From Candidatus Latescibacterota bacterium (lineage in GTDB: Bacteria > Latescibacterota > UBA2968 > GCA-2709665), in contig OZ220733.1 in assembly GCA_965116875.1 (NCBI GenBank), positions 4,800,001 to 4,864,000 on the forward strand: a DNA stretch of 64,000 nucleotides, read 5' to 3'. This document shows positions 27,975 through 40,376 of this stretch, piece by piece; within the stretch, counting starts at the first letter, position 1; every line of letters starts with the position of its first letter. A model generated the notes under the pieces. It was not told the origin of the DNA. It saw nothing but the letters and a program-made list of their open reading frames with translations, and did no database searches. Both the position numbers and the translations under genes were made by a program.

Positions 27975-28835
27975 ATGCAGCCCGAGCTGATCGCGGATTA
28001 TTCCTGTGAGACCGGCGAAGGACCGCTCTGGCACCCGACGGAAAAGAAGGTCTACTGGACCGATATTCCTGCCGGCCGCGTGTTCCGCTACGACCCGGCC
28101 ACCGGAATGCACGAAACCTGCTACACGGGCGGCGTCGTTGGCGGCTTTACGGTGCAGGCCGACGGATCTCTGCTGTTTTTCATGGAACGCGGCGCGGTCA
28201 AGATCTGGCGCAACGGTGAACTCACGACGGTGATCGAGGAAATCCCGGAGGAGCGCGAGACTCGCTTCAATGACGTGATTGCGGATCCCGAGGGCCGGGT
28301 ATTCTGCGGTACCATGCCCACGCCGGAGCGGCCGGGAAGGCTGTACCGACTGGATACGGACGGCACACTTCACCTGGTCATCGATGAGGTTGGGATTTCC
28401 AACGGTATGGGGTTCACGGCGGACCTTCGAAATATGTACTTCACGGACTCGCCCACGCTCAATATCTACCGGTTCGACTACGATCGGGAAACCGGCGACA
28501 TCGCGAACCGCGTGGTCTTTACGACGCGGGCGGAGGAGGACGAAGGGATACCGGACGGCATGACGGTGGACGCCCACGGCTGCGTCTGGTCCGCCCGATG
28601 GGACGGCTGCTGCCTCGTGCGATACACGCCCGACGGCGTGGAAGATCGGCGCATCGCATTCCCCGTCAGGAAAGTGTCCAGCCTCACCTTCGGCGGGGAG
28701 GACTACACGGACATCTACGTCACAACCGCGGGCGGAAACATCAAGCACGAAGACGGCGAACACGCCGGCGCCCTGTTCCGCCTGAACCTGGGCATCCGCG
28801 GCGTGGAGGAATTCTATTCGAGAGTCGGGTTGTAA
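27975..28835 (+). CDS. SMP-30/gluconolactonase/LRE family protein
   Basis: GEGPLW, RFND, SNGMGF, PDGMTVD and TFGG motifs; AGGAG RBS. Confidence 0.93.
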   Translation: MQPELIADYSCETGEGPLWHPTEKKVYWTDIPAGRVFRYDPATGMHETCYTGGVVGGFTVQADGSLLFFMERGAVKIWRNGELTTVIEEIPEERETRFNDVIADPEGRVFCGTMPTPERPGRLYRLDTDGTLHLVIDEVGISNGMGFTADLRNMYFTDSPTLNIYRFDYDRETGDIANRVVFTTRAEEDEGIPDGMTVDAHGCVWSARWDGCCLVRYTPDGVEDRRIAFPVRKVSSLTFGGEDYTDIYVTTAGGNIKHEDGEHAGALFRLNLGIRGVEEFYSRVGL

Positions 28836-28941: not shown

Positions 28942-29225
28942 CCATTCCTGATCCGCACAGTTCTGATTTCCTGATGGCTGCGCAAGAATCCCGGTCAAGC
29001 CCTAAACAAACACGGTCCCCCTGTCGTATATTATCGTAGATGCAGGGAAAGCATTTTTTTCGTCGACCTACCCTTGATTGGTTCTCATTTACGGTCACTG
29101 CTGTCCAAGAACCGTGGGATTCTCATAGATATGGTTCGAGAAGTGGCTTCAATTCGCAATCTAGAACGGGTCTGATCCGGATAACGGAAGCCAGGTTTCC
29201 ATCGGTTGGTGTTTGGTGTAACGCA

Positions 29226-29679
29226 TGTCATTCTGAGCGGCGTCGAAGCATTTTTCGCCGCTTCCGTCCCGCGTTGCAGGCGGACGTGCTGCTTCTCAGG
29301 TATCGACAAGTGAAAATCGCACGGGATGATCCGATGCTGCAGTAGATCCTTCGTCGGCCTGGGGGCCTCCTCTGGATGACAGCGGGAAGCCACGTGCATG
29401 ACAATCGTAAAACATGTCATTCTGAGCGCGCTGGCCTCCTCAGGATGACATGTTCTGCGAAGGTGTGGGTTCAGCGTTTTGCCAATAGTTATCGCAAGAC
29501 ATGTCAATCAGAGCGCAGCGAAGAATCTCCCGTATTCTCGAATGTACGTGTCGCATTTGGTCTCTATAGATGAGCTTGTGCGCGGACACTTCAACTGCCT
29601 GATGGCCCCTTCGACCCTACGACAAGCTCAGGACAACGGCTCAGGGACCGCAGGCTCGGGGCAAGTCCTCAGAATGACA
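29226..29679. repeat. Cluster of three TGTCATTCTGAG...CTCAGGATGACA inverted-repeat (REP-like) units
   Basis: Pairs at 29226-29381, 29411-29454 and 29502-29679; the third nests CCTTCGAC..GCTCAGG motifs. Confidence 0.75.
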
Positions 29680-29819
29680 GTCTTCTCGAAGGTAGGACCG
29701 CCTAGTTTCACCAATGGTTGTGGACGATTTTTTCAGCCATTCATTTCGCGTATTTTCGCGATTCTCGTATTCAATACAAATCCGTTTTTGGACAGGTGTG
29801 ATTTACGGTATATAACGAA

Positions 29820-29856
29820 GAAGCCTGATATGCAACAATATACAAGGCTTTATTCA
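29820..29856. repeat. Rpn-flanking repeat, copy D (degenerate, terminal hairpin only)
   Basis: AAGCCTGATATGCAACAATATACAAGGCTTTATTCA resembles the hairpin in copies A-C. Confidence 0.65.
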
Positions 29857-29979
29857 TGCAATTATAAAAGGTGTTTCGGTACACCTATTCAAGGCGAAAT
29901 CAAAACGGGACAACGCGCTTGTAGCGTGCATCGTCCCGCTTTATATCTTTCGATGCGGAGGATTTTCAGGGAATAGAAT

Positions 29980-30246
29980 TCATCTCTCTTCTTCATCCAA
30001 CAGTTGACCGAACGTGTCGAGGCTGGACGCCTGTACCGCGCCGCGGTGCAACTGTTCGAGACGCTTCACGTCGTCGACGTTCTCGATGCGGGCAGCCAGG
30101 GGATGCGAGGCGGGGAGGTCGAATCGGACGTCGAGTACGGCAAGGATACTTTTCCGCAGCCCCTGTTCAATGCCTTGTTCGATGCCTCGTTCGACGCCCT
30201 GTTGGGTGAGGTATCGGGCAAAGGATGATTCACGCAGGAGATCCAT
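29980..30246 (-). CDS. Predicted nested in-frame small protein (RpnS-like) of Rpn copy 1, 88 aa
   Basis: Internal AAGGAGG (30258-30252) followed by GG-ATG-ATG-GAT, in frame with the long ORF. Confidence 0.6.
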   Translation of the reverse strand: MDLLRESSFARYLTQQGVERGIEQGIEQGLRKSILAVLDVRFDLPASHPLAARIENVDDVKRLEQLHRGAVQASSLDTFGQLLDEEER

Positions 30247-30885
30247 CATCCCCTCCTTCGAAATGATATCAGTAATGGTTTCCGGCACATACGCCAGACC
30301 ACTCAGCAACGCCATTCCTGCGAGATAGTCGGCCTTTTCCGGCGGAGCCATTGAATGCGCGTGGGCGGCGCGCAAACATCGGCGCAACCACGCCCGGGAT
30401 GCCATCCCTTCAGGCGGCTTCATCAAAGGAGCGAAGGCGATCAGCCCCTCATGTCCAGCATCGAGAATGCCCTGACCATCCAGTTCGCTCAATCGGATCA
30501 CTTTGTACTGCACAAGCACCCGATGACCCGGATGCGACTGCGAATACTGTCCCGGATCCCGTTTTCCCGCATCCGGACGCAGATAGATGACGCTGGAACA
30601 CACGGGCAATCCGTGGCGTTCGATTGTCCGCCCGATATAGCCGGCCATGCGCCGCGGCATGGGCGGGTCGGTACTGTCCGTCGTTTGAAATTCGGTATGG
30701 ACCAGCGCCTCGCGGTCGTCAAAACGTACTTGAATGAGACTGTCGGCCTGGCTTGCAGAGACCGTAGGCTGCTGCGTGTCAACGACTTCGAGGACCTGAA
30801 CGTCCTCCCGCCCGAGGGTAAAACAGGCAAAATCGTCGGGATAGGTTTGGATCAGGTGCTTGGAAATCGCATCAAACTCTGCCAT
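29980..30885 (-). CDS. Rpn-family (recombination-promoting nuclease/putative transposase, PD-(D/E)XK) protein, copy 1
   Basis: FDAISKHL, ADSLI..HTEFQ, MPRRMAGY and VIYL motifs; C-terminal GIEQ repeats and IENVDD..LEQL tail. Confidence 0.85.
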   Translation of the reverse strand: MAEFDAISKHLIQTYPDDFACFTLGREDVQVLEVVDTQQPTVSASQADSLIQVRFDDREALVHTEFQTTDSTDPPMPRRMAGYIGRTIERHGLPVCSSVIYLRPDAGKRDPGQYSQSHPGHRVLVQYKVIRLSELDGQGILDAGHEGLIAFAPLMKPPEGMASRAWLRRCLRAAHAHSMAPPEKADYLAGMALLSGLAYVPETITDIISKEGMMDLLRESSFARYLTQQGVERGIEQGIEQGLRKSILAVLDVRFDLPASHPLAARIENVDDVKRLEQLHRGAVQASSLDTFGQLLDEEER

Positions 30886-31027
30886 GCAGAACGCCCAGGG
30901 GGAGGAGGAACGGGTCTCTATAAACAAGATATGTGATCAGGACGGAAAGTCAATTGCATCCGGAAAATATCCGATGAATCAAATACGACCCGCGCCCGTC
31001 TCTGGCATCTCGATGTCGACCAATGCT

Positions 31028-31202
31028 TGTTATTTTAACGTATTCCGGCAGAAGGACAATGAGACGGGCAGACAGGAATGTCTGCCCCACCCCGCAATCA
31101 CGACCACGCAACCCCCGATTGCGAGAACGAGCGACCGGCCGGTCGCCCATGCGATATGCAAAAAGCCTGATATGCAATGACATATCAGGCTTTATTCATT
31201 CA
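31028..31202. repeat. Rpn-flanking composite repeat, copy A (diverged)
   Basis: GGGCAGACAGGAATGTCTGCCCCAC, GCGACCGGCCGGTCGC and AAAGCCTGATATG..CATATCAGGCTTT hairpins in the same order as copies B and C. Confidence 0.85.
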
Positions 31203-31381
31203 ATCGGCATAGGTCAATCCGGACCGGCTATCCAATGTCGATGCATCACATTCAGGAATGGCCCGCGACCGTTGCCACGTCCACTTGAATCGTACGGTCA
31301 CCTCTCGTATGTGCCCGACCTCTTTCAGTCCGCTGATTGCTGATCGAGTGGATGTTTGACTACACAACCCGCAATCATCGG

Positions 31382-31660
31382 TCACCCCGGGTTCCTGTAT
31401 AGACGAAGAAGCTGCAGCACCGCCTTCTGAACTTCGATATCCAGCCCGTGTAACGTCTCCTGCAGCAACCTGCCGATCTTCCATTCCTGCTTTTCCATTT
31501 TGTCGTCTTCGAAGAACAGGAAGAGCACGTAGGGTTCAACGCCGAATCCGGCGGCGATCTTCTCCAGGGTGTCAAAGGTCAGGTTGATCTCACCGCGTTC
31601 GATTCCCCCGACGTACCGGTAGTCCAGATCCAGTTTCCTGCCCAGTTCGGTTTGCGTCAG
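31382..31660 (-). pseudogene. 5'-truncated XRE-family HTH regulator (not in ORF track)
   Basis: Hand translation LTQTELGRKLDLDYRYVGGIERGEINLTFDTLEKIAAGFGVEPYVLF...RNPG*; no ATG/GTG before an in-frame TAA at 31690-31688; first helix missing. Confidence 0.75.
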
Positions 31661-31823
31661 TGAAAAGAAGAGACTAAATCGCCCAGCTTATCCGGTTGAG
31701 GTAGCCCCCACGCGCATCGGAAGGTCAACGGGATATGGTGCATCGTGTATTCTTTCGCTTAGATTCGTGCACGCTGCCTGCTGAATTCTTGTGTCGAATC
31801 GTCGCCGATATGCCATCGATTCT

Positions 31824-32046
31824 CGTTGCAAAATGCGACATACGTTGCAAAATGCGACAAATGACCATGAACTAACAATATAAATAACTAATAAACAATA
31901 ATTAAACTATAACATGCCATGGAGATTTTGCCGATTTCGGCGTGCATTTTGCAACGTCTTCTCTATTCGGTCAGTAATTGTCTTCGACTTAACTTACTAA
32001 TATACAATAATTTCTTCGATTCCATATCTCCGGCACGGTTTTTGCA
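31824..32046 (+). promoter_or_regulatory. Sigma54-type promoter with upstream repeated activator-like sites
   Basis: CGGCACGGTTTTTGCA (GG-N10-GC, 32031-32046); CGTTGCAAAATGCGACA twice (31824-31840, 31843-31859); inverted GCATTTTGCAACG (31944-31956); AT-rich spacers. Confidence 0.65.
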
Positions 32047-32132
32047 TTTCGCAAACTGCCGATGCCATCGGACCACATGGACAGTTCGTGTTTTTCCGCG
32101 AGAAGGTGACAAACCTACCAAGGGAGGTCGTC

Positions 32133-32588
32133 ATGATGTTGGTACGCAGAATTGTAATGATCGCATTAACACTGTCGTGCATCTATGCGCCTGTGGCGGG
32201 AGAACCGATTGTCAAGCAAATCACCCTGAAATCAGATGAGGGCGACGAAAGGAAGCGAGATACCGGACTGGCACTCTTGTGCTTTGCTGCCAGTGCAGGG
32301 ATGGCTTACTATTCGCTGCAACAATTCGCGCTGGATAGCGAGGCCGACAATAATCAGACGAATTGTGTTATAGATGGTGGTGACATCGCTTCGTGCGAGA
32401 GGCAGTACCCTAACGAAAAATATTATCTAAAAGGCGCGCTGGCGGCGGCTGGTTCCGGCATTATGTTCGGATTCGGCTTAAAGGCATGGAGCGGCAAGGC
32501 CGAAAAGGCAAACCTGGGCAAGTCATTGATGATCGGAGTAAGGTCCGTTCGTCGCGGGGCTGTGGCTGCAGCGCAGCTGCGATTCTAG
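32133..32588 (+). CDS. Hypothetical exported/membrane protein
   Basis: GGAGG RBS; signal peptide; two hydrophobic segments around a Cys pair; ends in beta-strand-like QLRF. Confidence 0.7.
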   Translation: MMLVRRIVMIALTLSCIYAPVAGEPIVKQITLKSDEGDERKRDTGLALLCFAASAGMAYYSLQQFALDSEADNNQTNCVIDGGDIASCERQYPNEKYYLKGALAAAGSGIMFGFGLKAWSGKAEKANLGKSLMIGVRSVRRGAVAAAQLRF

Positions 32589-32710
32589 GACGTGCCCAAC
32601 ATCGCGCAGACGGGACATAGAGGTGGCCAGACAAGAGGCTGGCGCACGAGGCGGGTCGGTTGAATAACCGATGTCGAACGAACGCGCCGAGTCGTGGAGG
32701 GACCCCCGTG

Positions 32711-33214
32711 ATGTTGACAAAGGAAGGATTAGTGAGACTAGCGATTATCGCTTTGCTGTTCGTCGGTGTCGCGACGCATGCGGACGCTACGAAGCATAAT
32801 TTCAAGGGAAAGTTTCGGCGCGACACCAAGGGCGACTGGTACCCGGCAACCATTGTGATCAAGCCTAGATCTGTCATTATTTCCCATAACGGCTACACGA
32901 TCGCCAAGATTGGTCCCGGCGCCAAGATTGCGGCGGGCATGCACAAGAAGATCGGTAAATCCTACTTGGGCGTGCTGGCCGGGGGTATCGCGACGGCTGG
33001 AGGATTGATTTCAGCAACGTCGATGAAAGACAAGAAAAAGACTGCCATAGCGGCGCTCTTGCCGGTTGTCGGCGCCGTCGTGACTGCTGTCGTTCGTCAT
33101 GAAAACCGCATCCATTTCACGCTCTCTGACAGTACGAAATTACTACTTCAGATTCGGATAGGCGGCGGTCTCGAGGACGAGTTCTATCGTCGGGCCCGTG
33201 ATATGCTACAATGA
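32711..33214 (+). CDS. Hypothetical exported/membrane protein
   Basis: GGAGG RBS; signal peptide (ADA); basic protein with a hydrophobic hairpin. Confidence 0.65.
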   Translation: MLTKEGLVRLAIIALLFVGVATHADATKHNFKGKFRRDTKGDWYPATIVIKPRSVIISHNGYTIAKIGPGAKIAAGMHKKIGKSYLGVLAGGIATAGGLISATSMKDKKKTAIAALLPVVGAVVTAVVRHENRIHFTLSDSTKLLLQIRIGGGLEDEFYRRARDMLQ

Positions 33215-33311
33215 CGGGAAATCCACGCGGGCTGTCTTATCGCGACGAGGACACGACAAAATGCGATAAGCCTTAAATTAGGGAATTCCTCAAGTGCGGC
33301 GTAACAATGTT

Positions 33312-35125
33312 GAGTCCTCTCCGAAAACGGGTGTTATGGGAACATCGTAAGAGTGGTCAGCGTTGGAACTTGAGAAGGAGCGTGTGTCGGAGATAAGGCG
33401 CGTAGGTGCGGCCTAACGCAGCAGGGGCAAGGTACAACGTTGCTCAGGGCGATGATATAGCGGTTTTTCGCAATAAATCTCCACTTATGCGGGTAGCATC
33501 GTGGGTGTTGCGACGTAATTCCGGATTCGAACCAGATTGACCCATAAGGTGCGACAGCGCGCCCACCATTGATGTGGCATCAATCCGCGATAGCGGGTTT
33601 TACCGTTTCGGGTGTAATAGCTCAACTGGAAGATGCTGGCTTCGACGTTATTGCGTCGGTTTCTGATGTGTTCAGGCAGGGCTTCAATCTGTTTACGTTT
33701 AAGGTAATTGTCGATGTGTTGTTCTTTAAAGTATCGGGGTTTGCCATCGATGATGAGTTTGTATTTTCCCGGTTTGTATTCCTGGGCAATGTGCACCACT
33801 CCGGTTTTTCGATCCGTGACGGTGACGCCGTCATCTGTGCGTTCATAGATGAAACGTCCTGGGGTTCCCTGCAAGCCATTGTAATAGAATTGCTTGTTCT
33901 GTTCTTCTGCATACTCGGCGTTGGATGGATCGTGATACGCCCCATCCATTGACACTTCCCGAACCTGTCCGACCACATGCTGTGTGCGCTCGATCGCCGC
34001 CTGCACAAACCCGTTGTCGGGCGCCGTCGCGGGTTTGACGTCAACGTCCGTGATCAAGTTGAGGCCCTCGTCACCACAGGTCTCGGCGAGGTTGACACTG
34101 TATCCTTTTACCTTATCCTCCCCTTTCTTACGAAAGGCCGCATCTTCGTCATCGGGGGACTGCAACGAGGATGCGGAGATCTCGTCAGGCGGCTTGGGAA
34201 GCACCTGTTTGGAGGATGATATCACCGTATATTGGTCCCCGAAAACACGCGCCATCACACCATAGTGATTGCTGTCTTGCTCGGTATAGGTCGCCTGAAG
34301 CCTGCTCAATAACACACCGTATTCCTGTAGCTTCTCCCCTTTTTCAGCACGGGTGAGTCGGTAGACAACCTGATGGGGTTTCACCTTGAGCATTGCGTCC
34401 AGAACCTGCCGATCTCTTGCCGATAATCGTCGCTTCAGGTCCTCGTCCAACGATCCCCAGAACCGGTGTAAGCAACTCACCACCAACTGCAACCGACAAC
34501 ACAACGCAATGTTCGAGCCGATCAACTTACTGTCCATTCGGATTTGCTGACCCAACACACCGAAGGCATTGGCCTGCGTCTTGGTTAAGCTGCTAAAGAC
34601 CTCGCCAACCAGGTCTTGACCGGTGTTCAGTTGATATGCATACAAGGCCTGCTTGAACAGGTAATACGTCGACTCCACAGGCGCCTCATCAGACAGATTC
34701 ATCAATCCCAATGCCCGCATCGCCAGTATGTTGAACCGACATTGCTCGAACAGTTGCGCATCGCTCCACCCAAAGCCCTCCTTCATGATCATCATGGCAA
34801 ACAACTGACGGATGGGCGCATTGGGACGGCCGATGTCGGCATCAAACAACACCGAAAACACATCCTCGTCTATCTTTGACGTGAGGTGCTCGTAAAACAG
34901 ATTATGCCACGACTTCGCATCATTCAACTGCGCCTGTTTCCGATCCGTGAAGTGTGACTCGAAATTCGAAAACAAATCCGGTTGACTGCACGACGCGCTT
35001 TTCTTAAACATCGCTACCGTCCCTCGCTCGTCTTCCGTTTTACATCTGAAACTTCGCATCCTCTTGTCATTTGGAATTTAGCACTTTTTTCTCAATAAGA
35101 AAACTCGACTTTTCGGAGTGGACTC
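33312..35125 (-). mobile_element. Complete insertion sequence (IS1182/IS5-like DDE), 1814 bp
   Basis: TIRs GAGTCCTCTCCGAAAA (33312-33327) and TTTTCGGAGTGGACTC (35110-35125), 15/16 match; direct repeat AATGTT at 33306-33311 and 35126-35131. Confidence 0.92.
33485..35011 (-). CDS. DDE transposase
   Basis: DUF772-like N-terminus (GRPNAP..WSDAQLFE), RMDS, MDGAY and RNNVEASI..KTRYRG motifs. Confidence 0.92.
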   Translation of the reverse strand: MFKKSASCSQPDLFSNFESHFTDRKQAQLNDAKSWHNLFYEHLTSKIDEDVFSVLFDADIGRPNAPIRQLFAMMIMKEGFGWSDAQLFEQCRFNILAMRALGLMNLSDEAPVESTYYLFKQALYAYQLNTGQDLVGEVFSSLTKTQANAFGVLGQQIRMDSKLIGSNIALCCRLQLVVSCLHRFWGSLDEDLKRRLSARDRQVLDAMLKVKPHQVVYRLTRAEKGEKLQEYGVLLSRLQATYTEQDSNHYGVMARVFGDQYTVISSSKQVLPKPPDEISASSLQSPDDEDAAFRKKGEDKVKGYSVNLAETCGDEGLNLITDVDVKPATAPDNGFVQAAIERTQHVVGQVREVSMDGAYHDPSNAEYAEEQNKQFYYNGLQGTPGRFIYERTDDGVTVTDRKTGVVHIAQEYKPGKYKLIIDGKPRYFKEQHIDNYLKRKQIEALPEHIRNRRNNVEASIFQLSYYTRNGKTRYRGLMPHQWWARCRTLWVNLVRIRNYVATPTMLPA

Positions 35126-35255
35126 AATGTTGAGGTCAATTCCCCGCCCGCTATTGAAGAGTGGTTGTTGCAAATCGGAAATGACCCGTCGATCCGGAGC
35201 AGATCGAATTTGTGGACAACTTTAACTCCAGACCACATCTCGGGAGAATAGACAA

Positions 35256-35642
35256 ATGAACCGTACAATGATTGGTTCGATTCTGGGGACAGTGGCAGTA
35301 GTCGTGGTCTCCATTGTAACAGCAGCGATGTACGTCGCAAGGCTGGAGGAACGTGTCAAGAACCTTGAGATCGATTCACAACAGCAAGAGAACAGAACGA
35401 ACATTGCAATCAGGACCTTTGCAAACACACCGCGACCTCGCGGATCACAGGTGGGATTTGCAAATAGTGGGAGTTGGGGGGTCTGGAGCGACCCTCAGTT
35501 CTGTCCAGATGGTTACTACGTTTGCGGATTGAAACAGAAAGTTGAACCCAGACAGGGTGACGGCGATGACTCCGCGATGAACGCGGTCGCTTTTTATTGT
35601 TGCCCTTTAGACCCGCAAGCTGAACCCAACGCAAGTCAGTGA
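35256..35642 (+). CDS. Membrane-anchored coiled-coil protein with one VMO-I (vitelline membrane outer layer protein I)-like repeat
   Basis: TM helix, LEERVKNLE coiled coil, then WGVWS..CPDGYYVCGLKQKVEPRQGDGDDSAMNAVAFYCC. Confidence 0.7.
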   Translation: MNRTMIGSILGTVAVVVVSIVTAAMYVARLEERVKNLEIDSQQQENRTNIAIRTFANTPRPRGSQVGFANSGSWGVWSDPQFCPDGYYVCGLKQKVEPRQGDGDDSAMNAVAFYCCPLDPQAEPNASQ

Positions 35643-35806
35643 TGAGCTTGCCATCGCGGAACCTGCACAACCAAAGACCCCTTGCTCCCTTTGTCTCCAA
35701 CATCTATTTTTGACCTCATTTTATACTCTTCTCTCCGCCCAAAATTCGACGTTAAACTCGGAGGGGGGTTGTCTCACTTTATGATTGGCACGGAGGGAAA
35801 GCTACA

Positions 35807-36385
35807 ATGAATAAGCGAATCTTCAAGCAATGGATTATTCTCGTGATCCTTTTCTATATTGTAGCACTCGTCATCGGAATCATGCTGAAGAACTGTGATA
35901 CTGGCGACGGTGAGCCGTTGTACAATACATTCAAGGACCTCTTGCCATTGATAATTGCCATTCCTGTCGTTTGGCTAGGCTACTGTTTCCACGGTCGACT
36001 TGCCTATCTGAGAGACGTTCGCGAACTGTGGTCAAAGATTGTTGTGGCAGTACAAGAAGCCATCCAATACACTCACCTCAAAACTCCTTCACAGTCGGAA
36101 TTTGGAACCGTGTTGAAGAACCTCAGTATAGCGACGGAAGAACTGCGAGCTATATTTATCAATATTGGCGAAGGGAGGGAAGGGATCGGTTTGTATCCAT
36201 ACGAAAGCATCAAGACCATCCACGCCCAAATATCATGTCTCAGCTTTGGACCGCAATTTACCGAGAAAAACGCGAAGGTGGCACGTAATCAGATAGTTGC
36301 GAGTTGGAAAGAGTTCAGGAAACACTACCTCAATGAGCTAGAGCGAAGTGTTCCCACCGATATTGATAGTCCTTTCTTCAAGTAG
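35807..36385 (+). CDS. Hypothetical two-TM membrane protein
   Basis: GGAGG RBS; two N-terminal TM helices plus a helical domain; AT-rich coding. Confidence 0.75.
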   Translation: MNKRIFKQWIILVILFYIVALVIGIMLKNCDTGDGEPLYNTFKDLLPLIIAIPVVWLGYCFHGRLAYLRDVRELWSKIVVAVQEAIQYTHLKTPSQSEFGTVLKNLSIATEELRAIFINIGEGREGIGLYPYESIKTIHAQISCLSFGPQFTEKNAKVARNQIVASWKEFRKHYLNELERSVPTDIDSPFFK

Positions 36386-36819
36386 GCATATTTGGACAGT
36401 GCTACCAGCAGATAGTAAGTATCATTAACGGGTGAAGGCCTTATCAGGCAATTGTTATTCCAGCCTGCTTGTCTACGGTGGAATTGTTGTCAAATGTCTT
36501 GGATAGGGGAGAGCGCATCCTGGTGGTTTAAGCGGCGCCTCCTGGAATCGCAGCGACGGCGCGCTCTTCGCGCCAACGCCACGTTTACGGCGCCAAAATC
36601 CGCATCGTATGAGCCGTAATGTGCGGGGGCGTGGATTGATTGATTCGTGAAAATTGACAGTCCCAGGTGGCTCCATTGTGCCGATCATGGGCTGCCCGAT
36701 CAGTGCAATCCGTGACAACACTCTCACGTCAAAACACGCGCTCGTTTAGCCCGGGTTGAACGGGGGCTTCTGGGATAAGGGTGTTTACTAAGATAAATGA
36801 CCTGGAAAGGATTTACAGC

Positions 36820-37890
36820 ATGCAATCGCCAATCCGTGGATTCACTAGCTCAGTAACCGTAGCATACTTCATCGCAATTGTCTGCGGGCTGTTCAACGTC
36901 GCATTTGCGCAACTTCCGCCCGAGGTCCTTGCGGATAAATATCTCATGCAGGCGGAACAACTGGCTGAGAAAGATGAATTTGACGGTGCGCTCAGCCTCA
37001 TGGACTCAATCAAGACAATGGAAAAGGATCAAAATATCACCCTGCGTGAGGACTTCCATTTCATGCACGCGAAGTTTGCCTACGCGGCGGGCAGGGCGCA
37101 GACTGCAATGGACGCGGTGAGCGAGTATCTGTCAGCGGGTCGCCGGGGCGAATACTATGACGAAGCGCTGGCGCTGTTGATCAGGGCCGAACAGGTACTT
37201 GCCGACTTTGACTTAACCGCTGCGAAAAAGTGCACGTCGGTTATTCAATTGAGAGATCCCTCTCGTTACACCACCCTTGATGGGAGGTCTGGGAAGCGTG
37301 TTTCTGAAGCTTCCTACTGTTGGCGGGCATTGATCAACCCTCCGGGTTGCCAAATATGGGTCGATAGCTACATGTTCGTTCATCGCAACATGCACTGGAC
37401 GGGCAAGTGTCCGGACGGTCGGGCAGAGGGGAAGGGCACGCTCACGGCAGTTTGGAGTTATGTAGCAGGTTCATACAGTTACGCGGATTCGCTGGGCCAC
37501 CGGGGGCGGTTCATAAAAGGCCGACCCCATGGCGATTGGGATATTCGCTGGTACGAAAACGGGCAGCTTCGTCGTCCAAACGCTGTCTCGACCGATGATT
37601 TCCTGGTTCGCAAGGGTCGATATGAATACGGCAAGAAGCACGGAAAATGGACTACTCGGTATCGGGTGTTTTTCGGTGATACTCGAACGCATAGAGTTCA
37701 AGGAAATACAGGCGAATATTCACAAGGATTGAAGGAAGGCGAATGGTTGTATGGGCGTCGTACTGCCTGTGAATCCGTGACATATCGTGCAGGCGCGAGG
37801 CTGGAGTCCAGCCGTGTTGACTCGGTGGTTTGTCAGCAGAAGCTAAGCAACGTCGAAGGCTATGGTTGGTCGAAATACGGACGGCGATAA
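36820..37890 (+). CDS. Secreted protein with helical TPR-like N-domain and MORN-like repeats
   Basis: Signal peptide (AFA-Q); helical repeat region; WTGKCPDGRAEGKG and G.Y..G.K.G.W repeats. Confidence 0.65.
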   Translation: MQSPIRGFTSSVTVAYFIAIVCGLFNVAFAQLPPEVLADKYLMQAEQLAEKDEFDGALSLMDSIKTMEKDQNITLREDFHFMHAKFAYAAGRAQTAMDAVSEYLSAGRRGEYYDEALALLIRAEQVLADFDLTAAKKCTSVIQLRDPSRYTTLDGRSGKRVSEASYCWRALINPPGCQIWVDSYMFVHRNMHWTGKCPDGRAEGKGTLTAVWSYVAGSYSYADSLGHRGRFIKGRPHGDWDIRWYENGQLRRPNAVSTDDFLVRKGRYEYGKKHGKWTTRYRVFFGDTRTHRVQGNTGEYSQGLKEGEWLYGRRTACESVTYRAGARLESSRVDSVVCQQKLSNVEGYGWSKYGRR

Positions 37891-38007
37891 GGGGGTTTAC
37901 AAGAGATCACGCCGAACTATCGCCTTTTTAGCGATAATCCCGTCTACTACGTCATATGTCAACACAGCCAAGAATACAGGAGCGACTAAAGCCTGACTTG
38001 AGTCTGA

Positions 38008-38176
38008 ATTCCTTCAGAAGGAAAATGAGAAGGGCAGACAGGAATGTCCGCCCCACCCTGCAGAAACCACCACACAATCCCGATTGACTGGGTTTTCAGG
38101 GCGACCGGCCGGTCGCCCCTGCAATACGCAAAAAGCCTGATATGCAACGACATATCAGGCTTTGTTTATTCAGTTT
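38008..38176. repeat. Rpn-flanking composite repeat, copy B
   Basis: 38024-38176 matches 39393-39545 at 151/153 positions by hand alignment. Confidence 0.92.
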
Positions 38177-38302
38177 TACAGCAAAGATCGGCGAACGATT
38201 CGCGACTGGTCTCCGGCGCCAGATCAAAACGGGACAACGCACCTGTAGCGTGCATTGTCCCGCATTTTTCGTTCGATGGGAAGGATGTTCAGGGAATGAT
38301 GC

Positions 38303-38581
38303 TCATCCCTCTTCTTGATCCATCAGTTGACCGAACGCGTCGAGGCTGGCCGCCTGTACCGCGCCGCGGTGCAGCTGTTCGAGACGCTTCACGTCGTCGA
38401 CGTTTTCGATGCGGGCGGCGAATGGATGCGACGCAGCGACGTCGAATCGGACGTCCAGTACGGCGAGGATACTTCTCCGGAGCCCTTGCTCGATCCCTTG
38501 TTCAATCCCCTGCTCAATTCCTTGCTCGACGCCCTGTCGGGTGAGGTATTGGGCAAACGACGATTCACGTACGAGATCCAT
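38303..38581 (-). CDS. Predicted nested in-frame small protein (RpnS-like) of Rpn copy 2, 92 aa
   Basis: Internal AAGGAGG (38593-38587) followed by GC-ATG-ATG-GAT, in frame. Confidence 0.6.
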   Translation of the reverse strand: MDLVRESSFAQYLTRQGVEQGIEQGIEQGIEQGLRRSILAVLDVRFDVAASHPFAARIENVDDVKRLEQLHRGAVQAASLDAFGQLMDQEEG

Positions 38582-39220
38582 CATGCCCTCCTTCGAAATG
38601 ATATCAGTAATGGTTTCCGGCACGTACACCAGACCGCTCAGCAACGCCATTCCTGCAAGATAGTCGGCTTTTTTCGGCAGAGCCATCGCACGCGCGTGTG
38701 CGGCGTGCAGACATCGGCGCAACCACGCCTGTGAATCCAACCCTTCAGGAGGCTTCATCAACGGCGCGAAGGCGATCAGCCCCTCGTGTCCCGCATCCAG
38801 AACCCCCTGGCCATCCTGCTCGCTCAATCGGATCACCCGGTATTGCACAAATACCTGGTGGCCCGGATGCGATTGCGAATACTGACCGGGATCCTGTCCT
38901 CCCGAATCCGGACGCAGGTAGATGACGCTGGAACAGACTGGCAACCCATGGCGCTCGATCGCCCGCCCGATATAGCCGACCATGCGACGCGGCATGGGCG
39001 GATCGGTACTGTCCGTCGTTTGAAATTCGGTGTGAACCAGTGCCTCGCGGTCGTCGATGCGCACGCGAATGAGACTGTCGGCCTGGCTTGTCGAGACCGT
39101 GGGCTGCTGGGTGTCGATGACTTCGAGGACTTCCACTTCCTCCCGACCGAGCGTGAAGCTGGCAAAGTCCTCGGGATAGCTTTGTATCAGGTGCTTGGAA
39201 ATCGCATCAAACTCTGCCAT
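38303..39220 (-). CDS. Rpn-family protein, copy 2
   Basis: Close paralog of 29980-30885 with one extra GIEQ repeat. Confidence 0.85.
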   Translation of the reverse strand: MAEFDAISKHLIQSYPEDFASFTLGREEVEVLEVIDTQQPTVSTSQADSLIRVRIDDREALVHTEFQTTDSTDPPMPRRMVGYIGRAIERHGLPVCSSVIYLRPDSGGQDPGQYSQSHPGHQVFVQYRVIRLSEQDGQGVLDAGHEGLIAFAPLMKPPEGLDSQAWLRRCLHAAHARAMALPKKADYLAGMALLSGLVYVPETITDIISKEGMMDLVRESSFAQYLTRQGVEQGIEQGIEQGIEQGLRRSILAVLDVRFDVAASHPFAARIENVDDVKRLEQLHRGAVQAASLDAFGQLMDQEEG

Positions 39221-39362
39221 GCAGGACGCCCTGGGGGAGGAGGAACGGGTCTGTATAAACAAGATACCGGTTCAAGGCGGAAAGTCAATTGCGTCATGGT
39301 AAGAGTGAACGAATCATTTACAGCCCGCGCTCGTCCTGGCCAACGCAAGGGCGACCCATACC

Positions 39363-39545
39363 TGTCATTCTTGCGCATTCCGGCAGGATGACAATGAGAA
39401 GGGCAGACAGGAATGTCCGCCCCACCCTGCAGAAACCACCACACAACCCCGATTGACTGGGTTTTCAGGGCGACCGGCCGGTCGCCCCTACAATACGCAA
39501 AAAGCCTGATATGCAACGACATATCAGGCTTTGTTTATTCAGTTT
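39363..39545. repeat. Rpn-flanking composite repeat, copy C
   Basis: Four consecutive hairpins: TGTCATTC..GGATGACA, GTGG-type REP, GTAG-type REP and an AT-rich terminator-like stem. Confidence 0.92.
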
Positions 39546-39590
39546 AACAAGTCCGGGCGATGCAGGATAGCCGACGTATTGTTGCCGGCC

Positions 39591-40376
39591 TCAACCCCGC
39601 GCCAGGTCCCGGTAGGCCCTGAAGAGGTCCGCGTAATACGCCGCGAACATCCACCGGTCGCCGACGCCCCGATCGGGGCTACGTTCGGCTTCGGCCGACA
39701 TGTACCCCGCGTATCCTTTCTGGTGAAGCAGCCGGAACAACTCCCTGTACGGGTACCCCTGGCCGGCCAGGTCGTGCATATGCACGTGATCCAGCCAGGG
39801 CCAGACCGCTTCGAGCGCCTGCGCAACCGAACCGTCAACCACGTCTTCGGCCACCGAATTCCAGATCAATCCGAAATTTGAATGGTCCACCCGTTCGGCT
39901 ACCGACCGGCACGACCGCCAGTCGAATTCGCCGTGCAGTTCCAGGCACGGCCTGACAGCCCTAGCGACGCCGTACGCGCAGAGCTCCTGAAGCGCATCGG
40001 CCACCTGAGCGATCGTCTTCTCTCTCGGCACGTCTTTGGGGAAATTGTTCCCGAAGACCCTCACCCTGGGCGCTCCCAGATCCGCCGCGAGATCCATCCG
40101 CGCCTTTGTCTGTTCGATCTGGTCCCGAAGATCGGACGCGTCCTCATCGTGATACCGGTTTCCCGTTGCGACGCTGATGATTTCGATGCCGGCCGCCCGG
40201 CAGTCTGCCACGACCTGCCTGCGTTCGGCGTCATCCAGCGAAGCCTCCACGCCGTGCCCGTGACCCAGATCCGTCCGGAACTCGACGCCCTCGACGCCGT
40301 GGTCACCCAGCGTCTGCAGCAGGTCCCGGCGCGAAAGGTCTTTCAGAACGCCATATGTCATCCAGGAAAGTTTCAT
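39591..40376 (-). CDS. Sugar-phosphate isomerase/epimerase family protein
   Basis: GVEFR, VRVFG, LELHG and HVHMHD motifs; AGGAG RBS. Confidence 0.85.
   Translation of the reverse strand: MKLSWMTYGVLKDLSRRDLLQTLGDHGVEGVEFRTDLGHGHGVEASLDDAERRQVVADCRAAGIEIISVATGNRYHDEDASDLRDQIEQTKARMDLAADLGAPRVRVFGNNFPKDVPREKTIAQVADALQELCAYGVARAVRPCLELHGEFDWRSCRSVAERVDHSNFGLIWNSVAEDVVDGSVAQALEAVWPWLDHVHMHDLAGQGYPYRELFRLLHQKGYAGYMSAEAERSPDRGVGDRWMFAAYYADLFRAYRDLARG

Follow-up and report, generated by a model that had tools for sequence, protein, structure and literature searches.

We analysed 64,000 nucleotides (the window, meaning the whole stretch) from the chromosome of a Candidatus Latescibacterota bacterium (GTDB lineage Bacteria; Latescibacterota; UBA2968; GCA-2709665), corresponding to 4.800-4.864 Mb of a single-contig genome of 5.45 Mb with a GC content of 59.6% (assembly GCA_965116875.1, contig OZ220733.1). 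The island in question lies between two conserved convergent genes, one for an SMP-30/gluconolactonase-like protein and one for a xylose-isomerase-like TIM barrel protein (hereafter the lactonase and TIM-barrel genes). It consists of two genes for divergent Rpn-like proteins, rpn1 and rpn2, copies A to D of a repeat made up of the hairpins hp1, hp2 and hp3, and 6.8 kb of cargo (Table 1). As a preliminary description of the window had given it, the order is D-rpn1-A-[6.8 kb]-B-rpn2-C, with A, B and C as direct copies. The locus is probably a recombination-shaped, hypervariable intergenic hotspot that carries a tandem Rpn-like array, and not a composite element. An ancient tandem direct duplication of a unit of ~1.35-1.4 kb, comprising the hp3 terminator, the rpn terminator hairpin, rpn, its promoter and repetitive extragenic palindromes (REPs), would have given rise to the two rpn genes, both of them kept since by purifying selection, and hp3 would have been copied at each addition of DNA to the site. 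The cargo would have come later, in this genome only and piecemeal, as AT-rich orphan genes, an IS1182-family insertion sequence (IS) and a 2.7-kb segment that was also duplicated beside a decayed third copy of rpn at a distance of 230 kb. The order of events would thus run from the tandem duplication of the rpn unit to the arrival of the cargo, the copying of its right part to the third rpn locus (locus 3), the IS insertions and, last, the homogenisation of B and C.

Variation at the site is seen directly among the 14 other genomes of the genus (G001 to G014). The empty site that had been predicted exists: in four of the 13 relatives with both flanking genes (G006, G011, G013 and G014) about 150-210 bp separate the lactonase gene from the TIM-barrel gene. 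Intermediate alleles with a gap of 1.3-5.2 kb are found in G001, G003, G005, G008, G009, G010 and G012, and in the window the two genes are 10.8 kb apart; in G004 they lie on two contigs, both ending in rpn, and in G007 they are 345 kb apart, each adjoining an rpn copy. Occupied alleles also differ in content, with rpn remnants in G003, G005 and G010, full rpn genes in G001 and G007, and copies of hp2 and hp3. In a tree of the flanking genes (lactonase plus TIM-barrel; 14 rows, midpoint-rooted, with good support for nine of 11 inner branches) the empty alleles come out as polyphyletic, G013 being sister to G007 and G014 sister to G010, with G006 and G011 apart; the site has therefore repeatedly gained or lost content. 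Deletion and replacement would be favoured by the direct repeats, which would account for such scattered empty and variable alleles, and recombination between hp3 direct repeats would restore an empty site with one hp3. A multi-copy IS-like repeat adjoins the TIM-barrel half in G007, at the break beside the rpn copy on the TIM-barrel side, and for that reason a large rearrangement breakpoint is placed at this locus; the split may be IS-mediated. In G005 and G008, the two alleles read for this, the stretch from the lactonase gene to the left hp3 holds genes for an extracytoplasmic function (ECF) sigma factor and a zf-HC2 anti-sigma factor and a 282-aa gene; the conserved 3' end of the same 282-aa gene is present in G001, G009, G010 and G012, and the operon is missing from the genome of the window.

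The two rpn genes are old paralogs under purifying selection. Their minus-strand open reading frames (ORFs; 29980-30927 and 38303-39262) encode proteins that are 85% identical, the conserved start being an internal ATG (M15 of each ORF), which corrects the longer ORF calls; between the genes dS is 0.47, dN 0.066 and dN/dS 0.14. Similarity extends beyond the genes, with 82.3% identity over 1414 columns between 29818-31202 and 38130-39541. As the preliminary description had noted, it takes in the promoter-like hexamers, found exactly at 30953-30926 and 39288-39261, and the 3' hairpins, found where that description placed them. Promoter-like matches in both upstream regions are not above shuffled expectation, their support being conservation between the paralogs. 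The divergence of the genes is similar to that of A and C, which are 72-81% identical over two 100-column windows of the upstream repeat. Elsewhere in the genome, locus 3 (4.571 Mb) holds the decayed rpn3, which is 83% identical to rpn2 and has one internal TAA, and a fourth copy is a C-terminal fragment at 5.037 Mb. The second rpn locus of the genome, where rpn3 lies (4,566,001-4,582,000), is itself a decayed island adjoining a TonB-dependent receptor gene; besides rpn3 with its stop it contains a split paralog of the 369-aa cargo gene, an IS1595-family transposase and a dockerin-like ORF.

What had been described as one composite repeat does occur as the direct copies A, B and C, but it resolves into three separable elements with very different distributions in the genome. 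The first of these, hp1 (GGCAGACAGGAATGTCTGCCCCACC), is a palindrome of ~25 nt with 76 copies at up to three mismatches in a genome-wide pattern search, on both strands and clustered. Seven of its copies stand within 3 kb around the genome's only Y1_Tnp-like ORF (153 aa; region 2,122,501-2,125,500), in opposite orientations on either side; the match of that ORF to the model is marginal and partial (23.4 bits against a cut-off of 23). On this sequence evidence hp1 appears to be the REP of the genome's RAYT-like (REP-associated tyrosine transposase) system. It resembles known REP/RAYT systems in its size, its dispersed copies and their arrangement around the transposase-like ORF, and differs from them in that the RAYT-like match is marginal and that hp2 and hp3 stand outside the system. 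The second element, hp2 (GGGCGACCGGCCGGTCGCCC), is another dispersed palindrome, found at 33 positions genome-wide. The third, hp3, occurs in this genome only in A, B and C and, in degenerate form, in D. A pattern search of the 15 genomes of the genus found it in 13, always inside the lactonase/TIM-barrel locus, with one copy in three of the four empty alleles (G006, G011 and G014) and two in G003, G004, G005, G009 and G010. Because in the empty alleles it lies ~60 bp past the TIM-barrel stop codon, preceded by an A-run and followed by a T-run, and is flagged by a terminator scan, we take hp3 to be the native bidirectional terminator of the site, apparently copied locally.

The repeat therefore does not serve as an element end: hp1 and hp2 abound throughout the genome, and the terminator hp3 belongs to a single site. 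Terminal inverted repeats are lacking in the hp1-hp2 pair, and no inverted repeat joins the outer ends of the island. A reading of the pair as a MITE (miniature inverted-repeat transposable element) was rejected, since it lacks both terminal inverted repeats and solo copies in that geometry. In line with the preliminary description, the ordered hp1-hp2 pair is found in this geometry only beside rpn (four of the six co-occurrences of hp1 and hp2, the other two having a different geometry); rpn3 has the pair on one side only. Among nine same-genus rpn loci, hp1 is near three, two of which appear to be the same orthologous site; six have no hp1 within 1.5 kb, and five have neither hp1 nor hp2. 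At an orthologous hp1 repeat array an rpn unit is embedded in G005 and G010, and none in the genome of the window. In this genome the array lies at 1,729,550-1,731,250 and consists of tandem repeats of ~379 bp that carry hp1. A further dispersed element of ~720 bp lies outside D (29077-29799), with dozens of full or partial copies genome-wide, the best of them 91.9% identical over 729 nt; the copies share a sharp end, ...CCGTTTTTGGACAGGTGT, beyond which the flanks are unrelated. Several copies of this element elsewhere have a hp1 REP within about 50-250 bp downstream.

The near-identity of B and C (151 of 153 positions, 98.69%) holds as described, and identity is 95.4% when 173 nt are compared. 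Likewise A is diverged, sharing 90-92% identity with B and C across 72 nt; D (29789-29860) keeps only the last hairpin, degenerate at 64%. The preliminary description took the B/C pair as the mark of a recent insertion or amplification of an rpn unit, which is not what the sequences indicate, rpn2 being an old paralog (dS 0.47) and B a chimera of locus-3-type and C-type sequence. The first 96 nt of B are 92.7% identical to locus 3, and it is from 38024 onward that B matches C at 151 of 153 positions. Since B is chimeric, the likeness of B to C is due to recent homogenisation, probably a short gene-conversion or unequal-recombination tract between neighbouring repeats.

It is extremely improbable that the B/C duplication, and hence the flanks of rpn2, is an artefact of assembly, even though two near-identical 153-bp repeats only 1.37 kb apart are the kind of sequence in which one might arise and no Logan contig crosses B or C. 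Logan contigs of run X2 show no differences from the assembly, and one bridges 30860-33390. Depth in bins free of dispersed repeats is ~10x (10.8-11.9 over rpn1, 10.4 over the left part of the cargo and 9.8-11.6 over rpn2), although this run may be the assembly's own source; run X1, which gave short, partly diverged pieces, was not used. Moreover, the outer flanks of B and C differ, the two repeats have two internal differences, and the layout of rpn, repeat and TIM-barrel gene recurs in G004 and G007. Apparent contig joints from 29538/29539 to 38033/38027 were considered as deletion junctions and dismissed, as their sides are 27-32 nt long and derive from REP and MITE copies elsewhere.

The cargo is a young patchwork specific to this genome, with parts of different ages. 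It is AT-richer, as had been noted (GC 45-58% against 59.6% for the genome). Its left ORFs (31203-33304) gave no Pfam, NCBIfam or PADLOC matches, and its left 2.1 kb no DNA match in the 14 other genomes of the genus. The IS that follows is assigned by an NCBIfam IS1182 match below the cut-off (E 1.9e-26) and by Pfam DUF772, and has a second copy, 95% identical, at 5.394 Mb. To its right, 35438-38123 takes in a VOMI-like ORF's 3' part, a membrane ORF of 192 aa (35807-36385), a 369-aa ORF (36781-37890) and hp1 and hp2 of B, and matches locus 3 at 91.7% and 90.8% identity; the copy there is interrupted by 5.2 kb with an IS1595-type transposase, and its 369-aa gene is split. As rpn2 and rpn3 are only 83% identical, this duplication must have ended at hp2, beside a pre-existing rpn copy. 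When 35140-38000 was searched in the other genomes of the genus, only short dispersed repeats were found. There are two of these, at 35655-35800 (~145 nt) and 36650-36718 (~68 nt); the query matched all 15 genomes of the genus, nearly all of the listed non-self matches falling on the two repeats, and G001 alone had 20 matches. In the 369-aa ORF the N-terminus is signal-like, and G-x-W/Y motifs recur that by eye look like MORN/YwqK-type repeats; there was no family match at the thresholds used.

Against this background, it is very unlikely that the rpn units are the arms of an integrase-free composite transposon, able to capture or delete the 6.8-kb cargo as a unit, as the preliminary description proposed. 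The two units do bracket the cargo in direct orientation, hp3 copies D and C do bracket the whole island, and the island is absent from relatives. Yet the cargo is a mosaic of ages that is not found whole anywhere else, its left 2.1 kb matching none of the other genomes of the genus; all that recurs at another site is the right 2.7 kb, which lies at locus 3 next to another rpn copy and lacks the left part there. The outer ends lack terminal inverted repeats, and the arms are old paralogs, 82% identical, that encode a PD-(D/E)xK-like protein; for Rpn proteins PMC10400941 records no evidence of transposition in the literature.

A different kind of mobility is possible, though doubtful: the rpn units might be non-autonomous cassettes that move on dispersed or local repeats, B-rpn2-C being one of them. 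Recombination between flanking repeats would free a circle with rpn and one repeat, re-integrating at any homologous repeat copy, or a pair of MITEs would be moved as a composite by the MITE's transposase. Parallels come from G026, a genome of another genus (g6) with 46 rpn-like genes and 128 copies of a 121-bp MITE-like element that has terminal inverted repeats and a strong fold. Among the 100 of the 128 element positions that were listed (28 were not), copies stand on both sides of 15 of the 46 genes, downstream only of three, upstream only of five and on neither side of 23, always in the gene's orientation, against a chance expectation of 0.017 per gene. Where read (seven loci and one tandem pair), 2-5 bp lie between the stop and the start of the downstream copy, and 113-345 bp between the end of the upstream copy and the ATG. 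The outer ends of the modules are sharp, with unrelated flanks in most loci, and 63 of the 100 listed elements are solo copies and so potential targets; four of 20 loci hold tandem rpn pairs. Within the genus of the window, cassette movement is also suggested by hp3-rpn-hp3 in G007, hp2-hp3 flanks in G003 and B/C in this genome, by the polyphyly of the empty alleles, and by the rpn unit that G005 and G010 carry inside a hp1-bearing array that is rpn-free here.

On the other side, in this genome hp3 is confined to its locus and no solo copy of the hp1-hp2 pair exists in the same geometry, which leaves no second target; the pair at rpn3 is one-sided and arrived by segmental duplication; most same-genus rpn loci (six of nine, as above) lack hp1 nearby, and five lack both palindromes; and rpn2 is an old resident. 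Half of the G026 genes (23 of 46) have no listed element, with 28 of the 128 positions unlisted. No empty site was recovered for the one G026 module for which it was sought (L047), whose flanks are repetitive and for which the five sister genomes are ~70% identical and have no match to the 121-bp element. The short flanking target of the element, by eye apparently TA, does not separate composite moves from single insertions, and no cognate transposase was identified for it. In a comparison of same-locus flanks with mismatched-flank controls, only two of 20 same-locus pairs scored above the controls' 95th percentile; as the element is common to many loci, this test was replaced by the census of positions. 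The G026 modules resemble MITE-bounded composites such as the TIME-COMPs (PMC13367494), in that a gene lies between two direct copies of a miniature element with terminal inverted repeats, outer ends are sharp and solo copies are many. They are unlike them in carrying an rpn-like gene and not a resistance gene and in being known from sequence alone; the window's own repeats differ further, having neither terminal inverted repeats nor solo copies.

We still favour a hotspot with a tandem Rpn-like array, and several results count against it. Within 400 bp of rpn copies hp1 and hp2 each occur at four places, where 0.10 and 0.04 are expected, although these four sites are linked by duplication and so are not independent. 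Direct repeats of local sequence flank rpn in three lineages with differing extents (B/C in the genome of the window, G000; hp2-hp3 in G003; ~130 bp in G007), which simple tandem duplication alone does not make, and sharp MITE-rpn-MITE modules exist in another genus, at the 15 of 46 genes just described. Logan contigs break at repeats, and none spans B or C. As for the Rpn-like nature of the array, the TIGR01784 model matches only the C-terminal part of the proteins, at 25.9 bits for rpn2 and 15.9 bits for rpn1 against a cut-off of 52.1. Pfam has no match for either, and PF04754 none in the whole genome; and hhalign to E. coli RpnA gave a probability of 0.4% (E 0.16), in what is a weak test against a single target sequence (Neff 1.7).

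The label rpn, as used in the preliminary description, thus lacks support from curated models (no Pfam match, TIGR01784 below the cut-off), while several Rpn traits are shared. An N-terminal PD-(D/E)xK nuclease domain with conserved acidic residues and an E-x-Q/K motif is a hallmark of the Rpn family. In 34 family members D62 and E79-F80-Q81 are invariant; TIGR01784 reaches E of 0.01 or less in 21 of the 34, always below the cut-off, and none of the 34 matches an Rpn-type Pfam family at E of 1 or less. No protein passing the TIGR01784 model was found in 121 sampled genomes of the phylum. In the AlphaFold2 model (predicted local distance difference test, pLDDT, 73) the structural matches of the N-terminal domain are all PD-(D/E)xK nucleases, but at Z of 5.0-5.5 only; Foldseek against the PDB gave nothing at E of 0.001 or below, and phmmer against PDB sequences a chance match only. 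In the ESM Atlas the nearest named clusters, at 0.96-0.97, are DUF4351, Rpn-family and DUF2887. Of 7998 candidates scored, 1523 are homologs at E of 0.001 or less, none with a precomputed Pfam domain; their source names are Gemmatimonadota, the phylum to which these names would also assign the genome of the window, and their annotations mostly 'hypothetical', with one Rpn family. The family is multi-copy and patchy, with 1-52 matches per genome, several with stops; it is present in 36 of 61 related genomes (genus g1 13 of 14, g6 21 of 21, g15 one of one, and none in the other 14 genera).

Each rpn gene would work like E. coli RpnL/RpnS, encoding a putative PD-(D/E)xK-type toxic nuclease and, from an internal start, a small C-terminal antitoxin, the two presumably pairing through a helix with variable 4-residue repeats; a role in phage defence would be likely. 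The C-terminal helix bears (Q/R)GIE-type 4-residue repeats, whose number in the copies read ranges from roughly one or two up to seven or more, with one fewer in rpn1 than in rpn2. In all 36 distinct full-length copies, which come from two genera, an internal AGGAGG-N5-ATG stands 15 residues before the repeats. At the internal AGGAGG, Glu is encoded by GAG in 36 of 36, against 47% GAG elsewhere in the same genes, a count that is not to be read as a probability because the copies are related. For the C-terminal 92 aa a homodimer is predicted with an ipSAE of 0.74 (best of three controls 0.06), a mark reached in calibration by 20 of 30 solved homodimers and one of 23 single chains; the runs agree on at least 94% of contacts with a pLDDT of at least 86, and the interface residues 243-272 are the repeat helix. 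As a like structure (RpnA_S) has already been solved, the prediction shows likeness, not binding.

These features invite comparison with the Rpn proteins of E. coli (PMC10400941, PMC5350276). Shared, at the level of sequence and prediction, are a length of ~300 aa, an N-terminal domain whose structural matches are all PD-(D/E)xK nucleases and a C-terminal three-helix domain with variable 4-residue repeats, (Q/R)GIE here and KGIE for RpnC as cited in PMC10400941. The internal Shine-Dalgarno sequence and ATG lie 15 residues before the repeats, within the 8-20 given in that paper. Also shared are dimerisation through the repeat helix, here predicted, and a patchy multi-copy distribution with tandem arrays and many broken copies. 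Unlike them, the proteins here have no Rpn-type Pfam match, a sub-threshold TIGR01784 match only and no significant hhalign alignment to RpnA. According to PMC10400941, rpn arrays form by tandem direct duplication with variable ends, and the genes are not autonomous and have no identifiable terminal repeats or target duplications. The sharp MITE-rpn-MITE modules of one genus here conflict with that published lack of flanking repeats and make the spread of rpn directly testable. Among the papers returned by literature searches, judged by title and the opening of the abstract, none describes MITE- or REP-flanked rpn genes. It is unlikely, though conceivable, that the ends of Rpn-like genes in Gemmatimonadota are defined after all, the genes being cassettes with a repeat on either flank (MITE-rpn-MITE in one genus, REP/terminator-rpn-REP/terminator here), moved or exchanged by repeat recombination or transposition; the nuclease itself might promote breaks for such movement. 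If true, genes that have for decades gone under the name 'putative transposase', with no known ends, would as a family gain their first defined mobilisation unit.

Judged as an integration hotspot, the locus has conserved convergent flanks, empty, intermediate and large alleles within one genus, orphan genes accumulated alongside IS, MITE and REP elements, and low GC; it departs from known hotspots in having no integrase, tRNA or att site and no defence systems detected beyond the rpn-like genes. The analysis extends the RpnL/RpnS gene-within-gene layout, as sequence signals, to a phylum in which curated models find no Rpn, and identifies a protein family with over 1,500 members, most of them 'hypothetical'. 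It also counsels caution in calling mobile elements from repeats, as what looked like an element end was here made up of a REP, another palindrome and a duplicate of the native terminator.

Table 1. Features of the rpn island and its flanks (window positions; hp, hairpin).
Feature	Position	Strand	Remarks
Lactonase gene (SMP-30/gluconolactonase-like), left flank	27975..28835	+	Pfam SGL, E 1.3e-75; single-copy ortholog in 13/14 genus relatives
MITE-like dispersed repeat, between lactonase gene and hp3 (D)	29077..29799	.	~720 bp
hp3 copy D, degenerate native terminator	29821..29850	+	left flank homologous to left-hand hp3 of relatives
rpn1 3' terminator-like hairpin	29894..29942	-	88% identical to 38218-38266; conserved in third and fourth paralogs
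rpn1, divergent Rpn-like protein, 301 aa	29980..30885	-	from conserved internal ATG
rpn1 putative internal RpnS-like reading frame	29980..30246	-	conserved ATG; AAGGAGG 5 nt before ATG, ATG 15 codons before 4-aa repeats
rpn1 promoter-like hexamers TTGACT-N16-TATCTT	30926..30953	-	conserved with rpn2
Repeat A	31042..31202	+	hp1 31067-31092, hp2 31129-31148, hp3 31163-31192
Cargo, left part: AT-richer orphan ORFs (small membrane/secreted-looking proteins)	31203..33304	.	
IS1182-family insertion sequence	33305..35131	-	transposase 33485-35059
Cargo, right part: segment duplicated at second rpn locus	35438..38123	.	genome 4.571-4.579 Mb
Repeat B, chimeric	37977..38180	+	hp1 38033-38058, hp2 38099-38118, hp3 38133-38162
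rpn2 3' terminator-like hairpin	38229..38263	-	14 pairs, then T-rich tail
rpn2, divergent Rpn-like protein, 305 aa	38303..39220	-	from conserved internal ATG
rpn2 putative internal RpnS-like reading frame	38303..38581	-	predicted homodimer ipSAE 0.74, best control 0.06
rpn2 promoter-like hexamers TTGACT-N16-TATCTT	39261..39288	-	conserved with rpn1
Repeat C	39346..39549	+	hp1 39402-39427, hp2 39468-39487, hp3 39502-39531; hp3 is the terminator beside the TIM-barrel gene
TIM-barrel gene (xylose-isomerase-like), right flank	39591..40376	-	Pfam AP_endonuc_2, E 1.1e-24; single-copy ortholog in 13/14 relatives

The wider setting gives no sign of the defence locus that the preliminary description had put forward, no defence genes being detected in or around the island. 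PADLOC defence models gave only two marginal matches among 12 proteins of the locus (E 0.0026 and 0.0067), and 19 neighbouring ORFs are housekeeping genes by Pfam, among them Feo, sugar-acid metabolism, TamB/BamA and ClpB.

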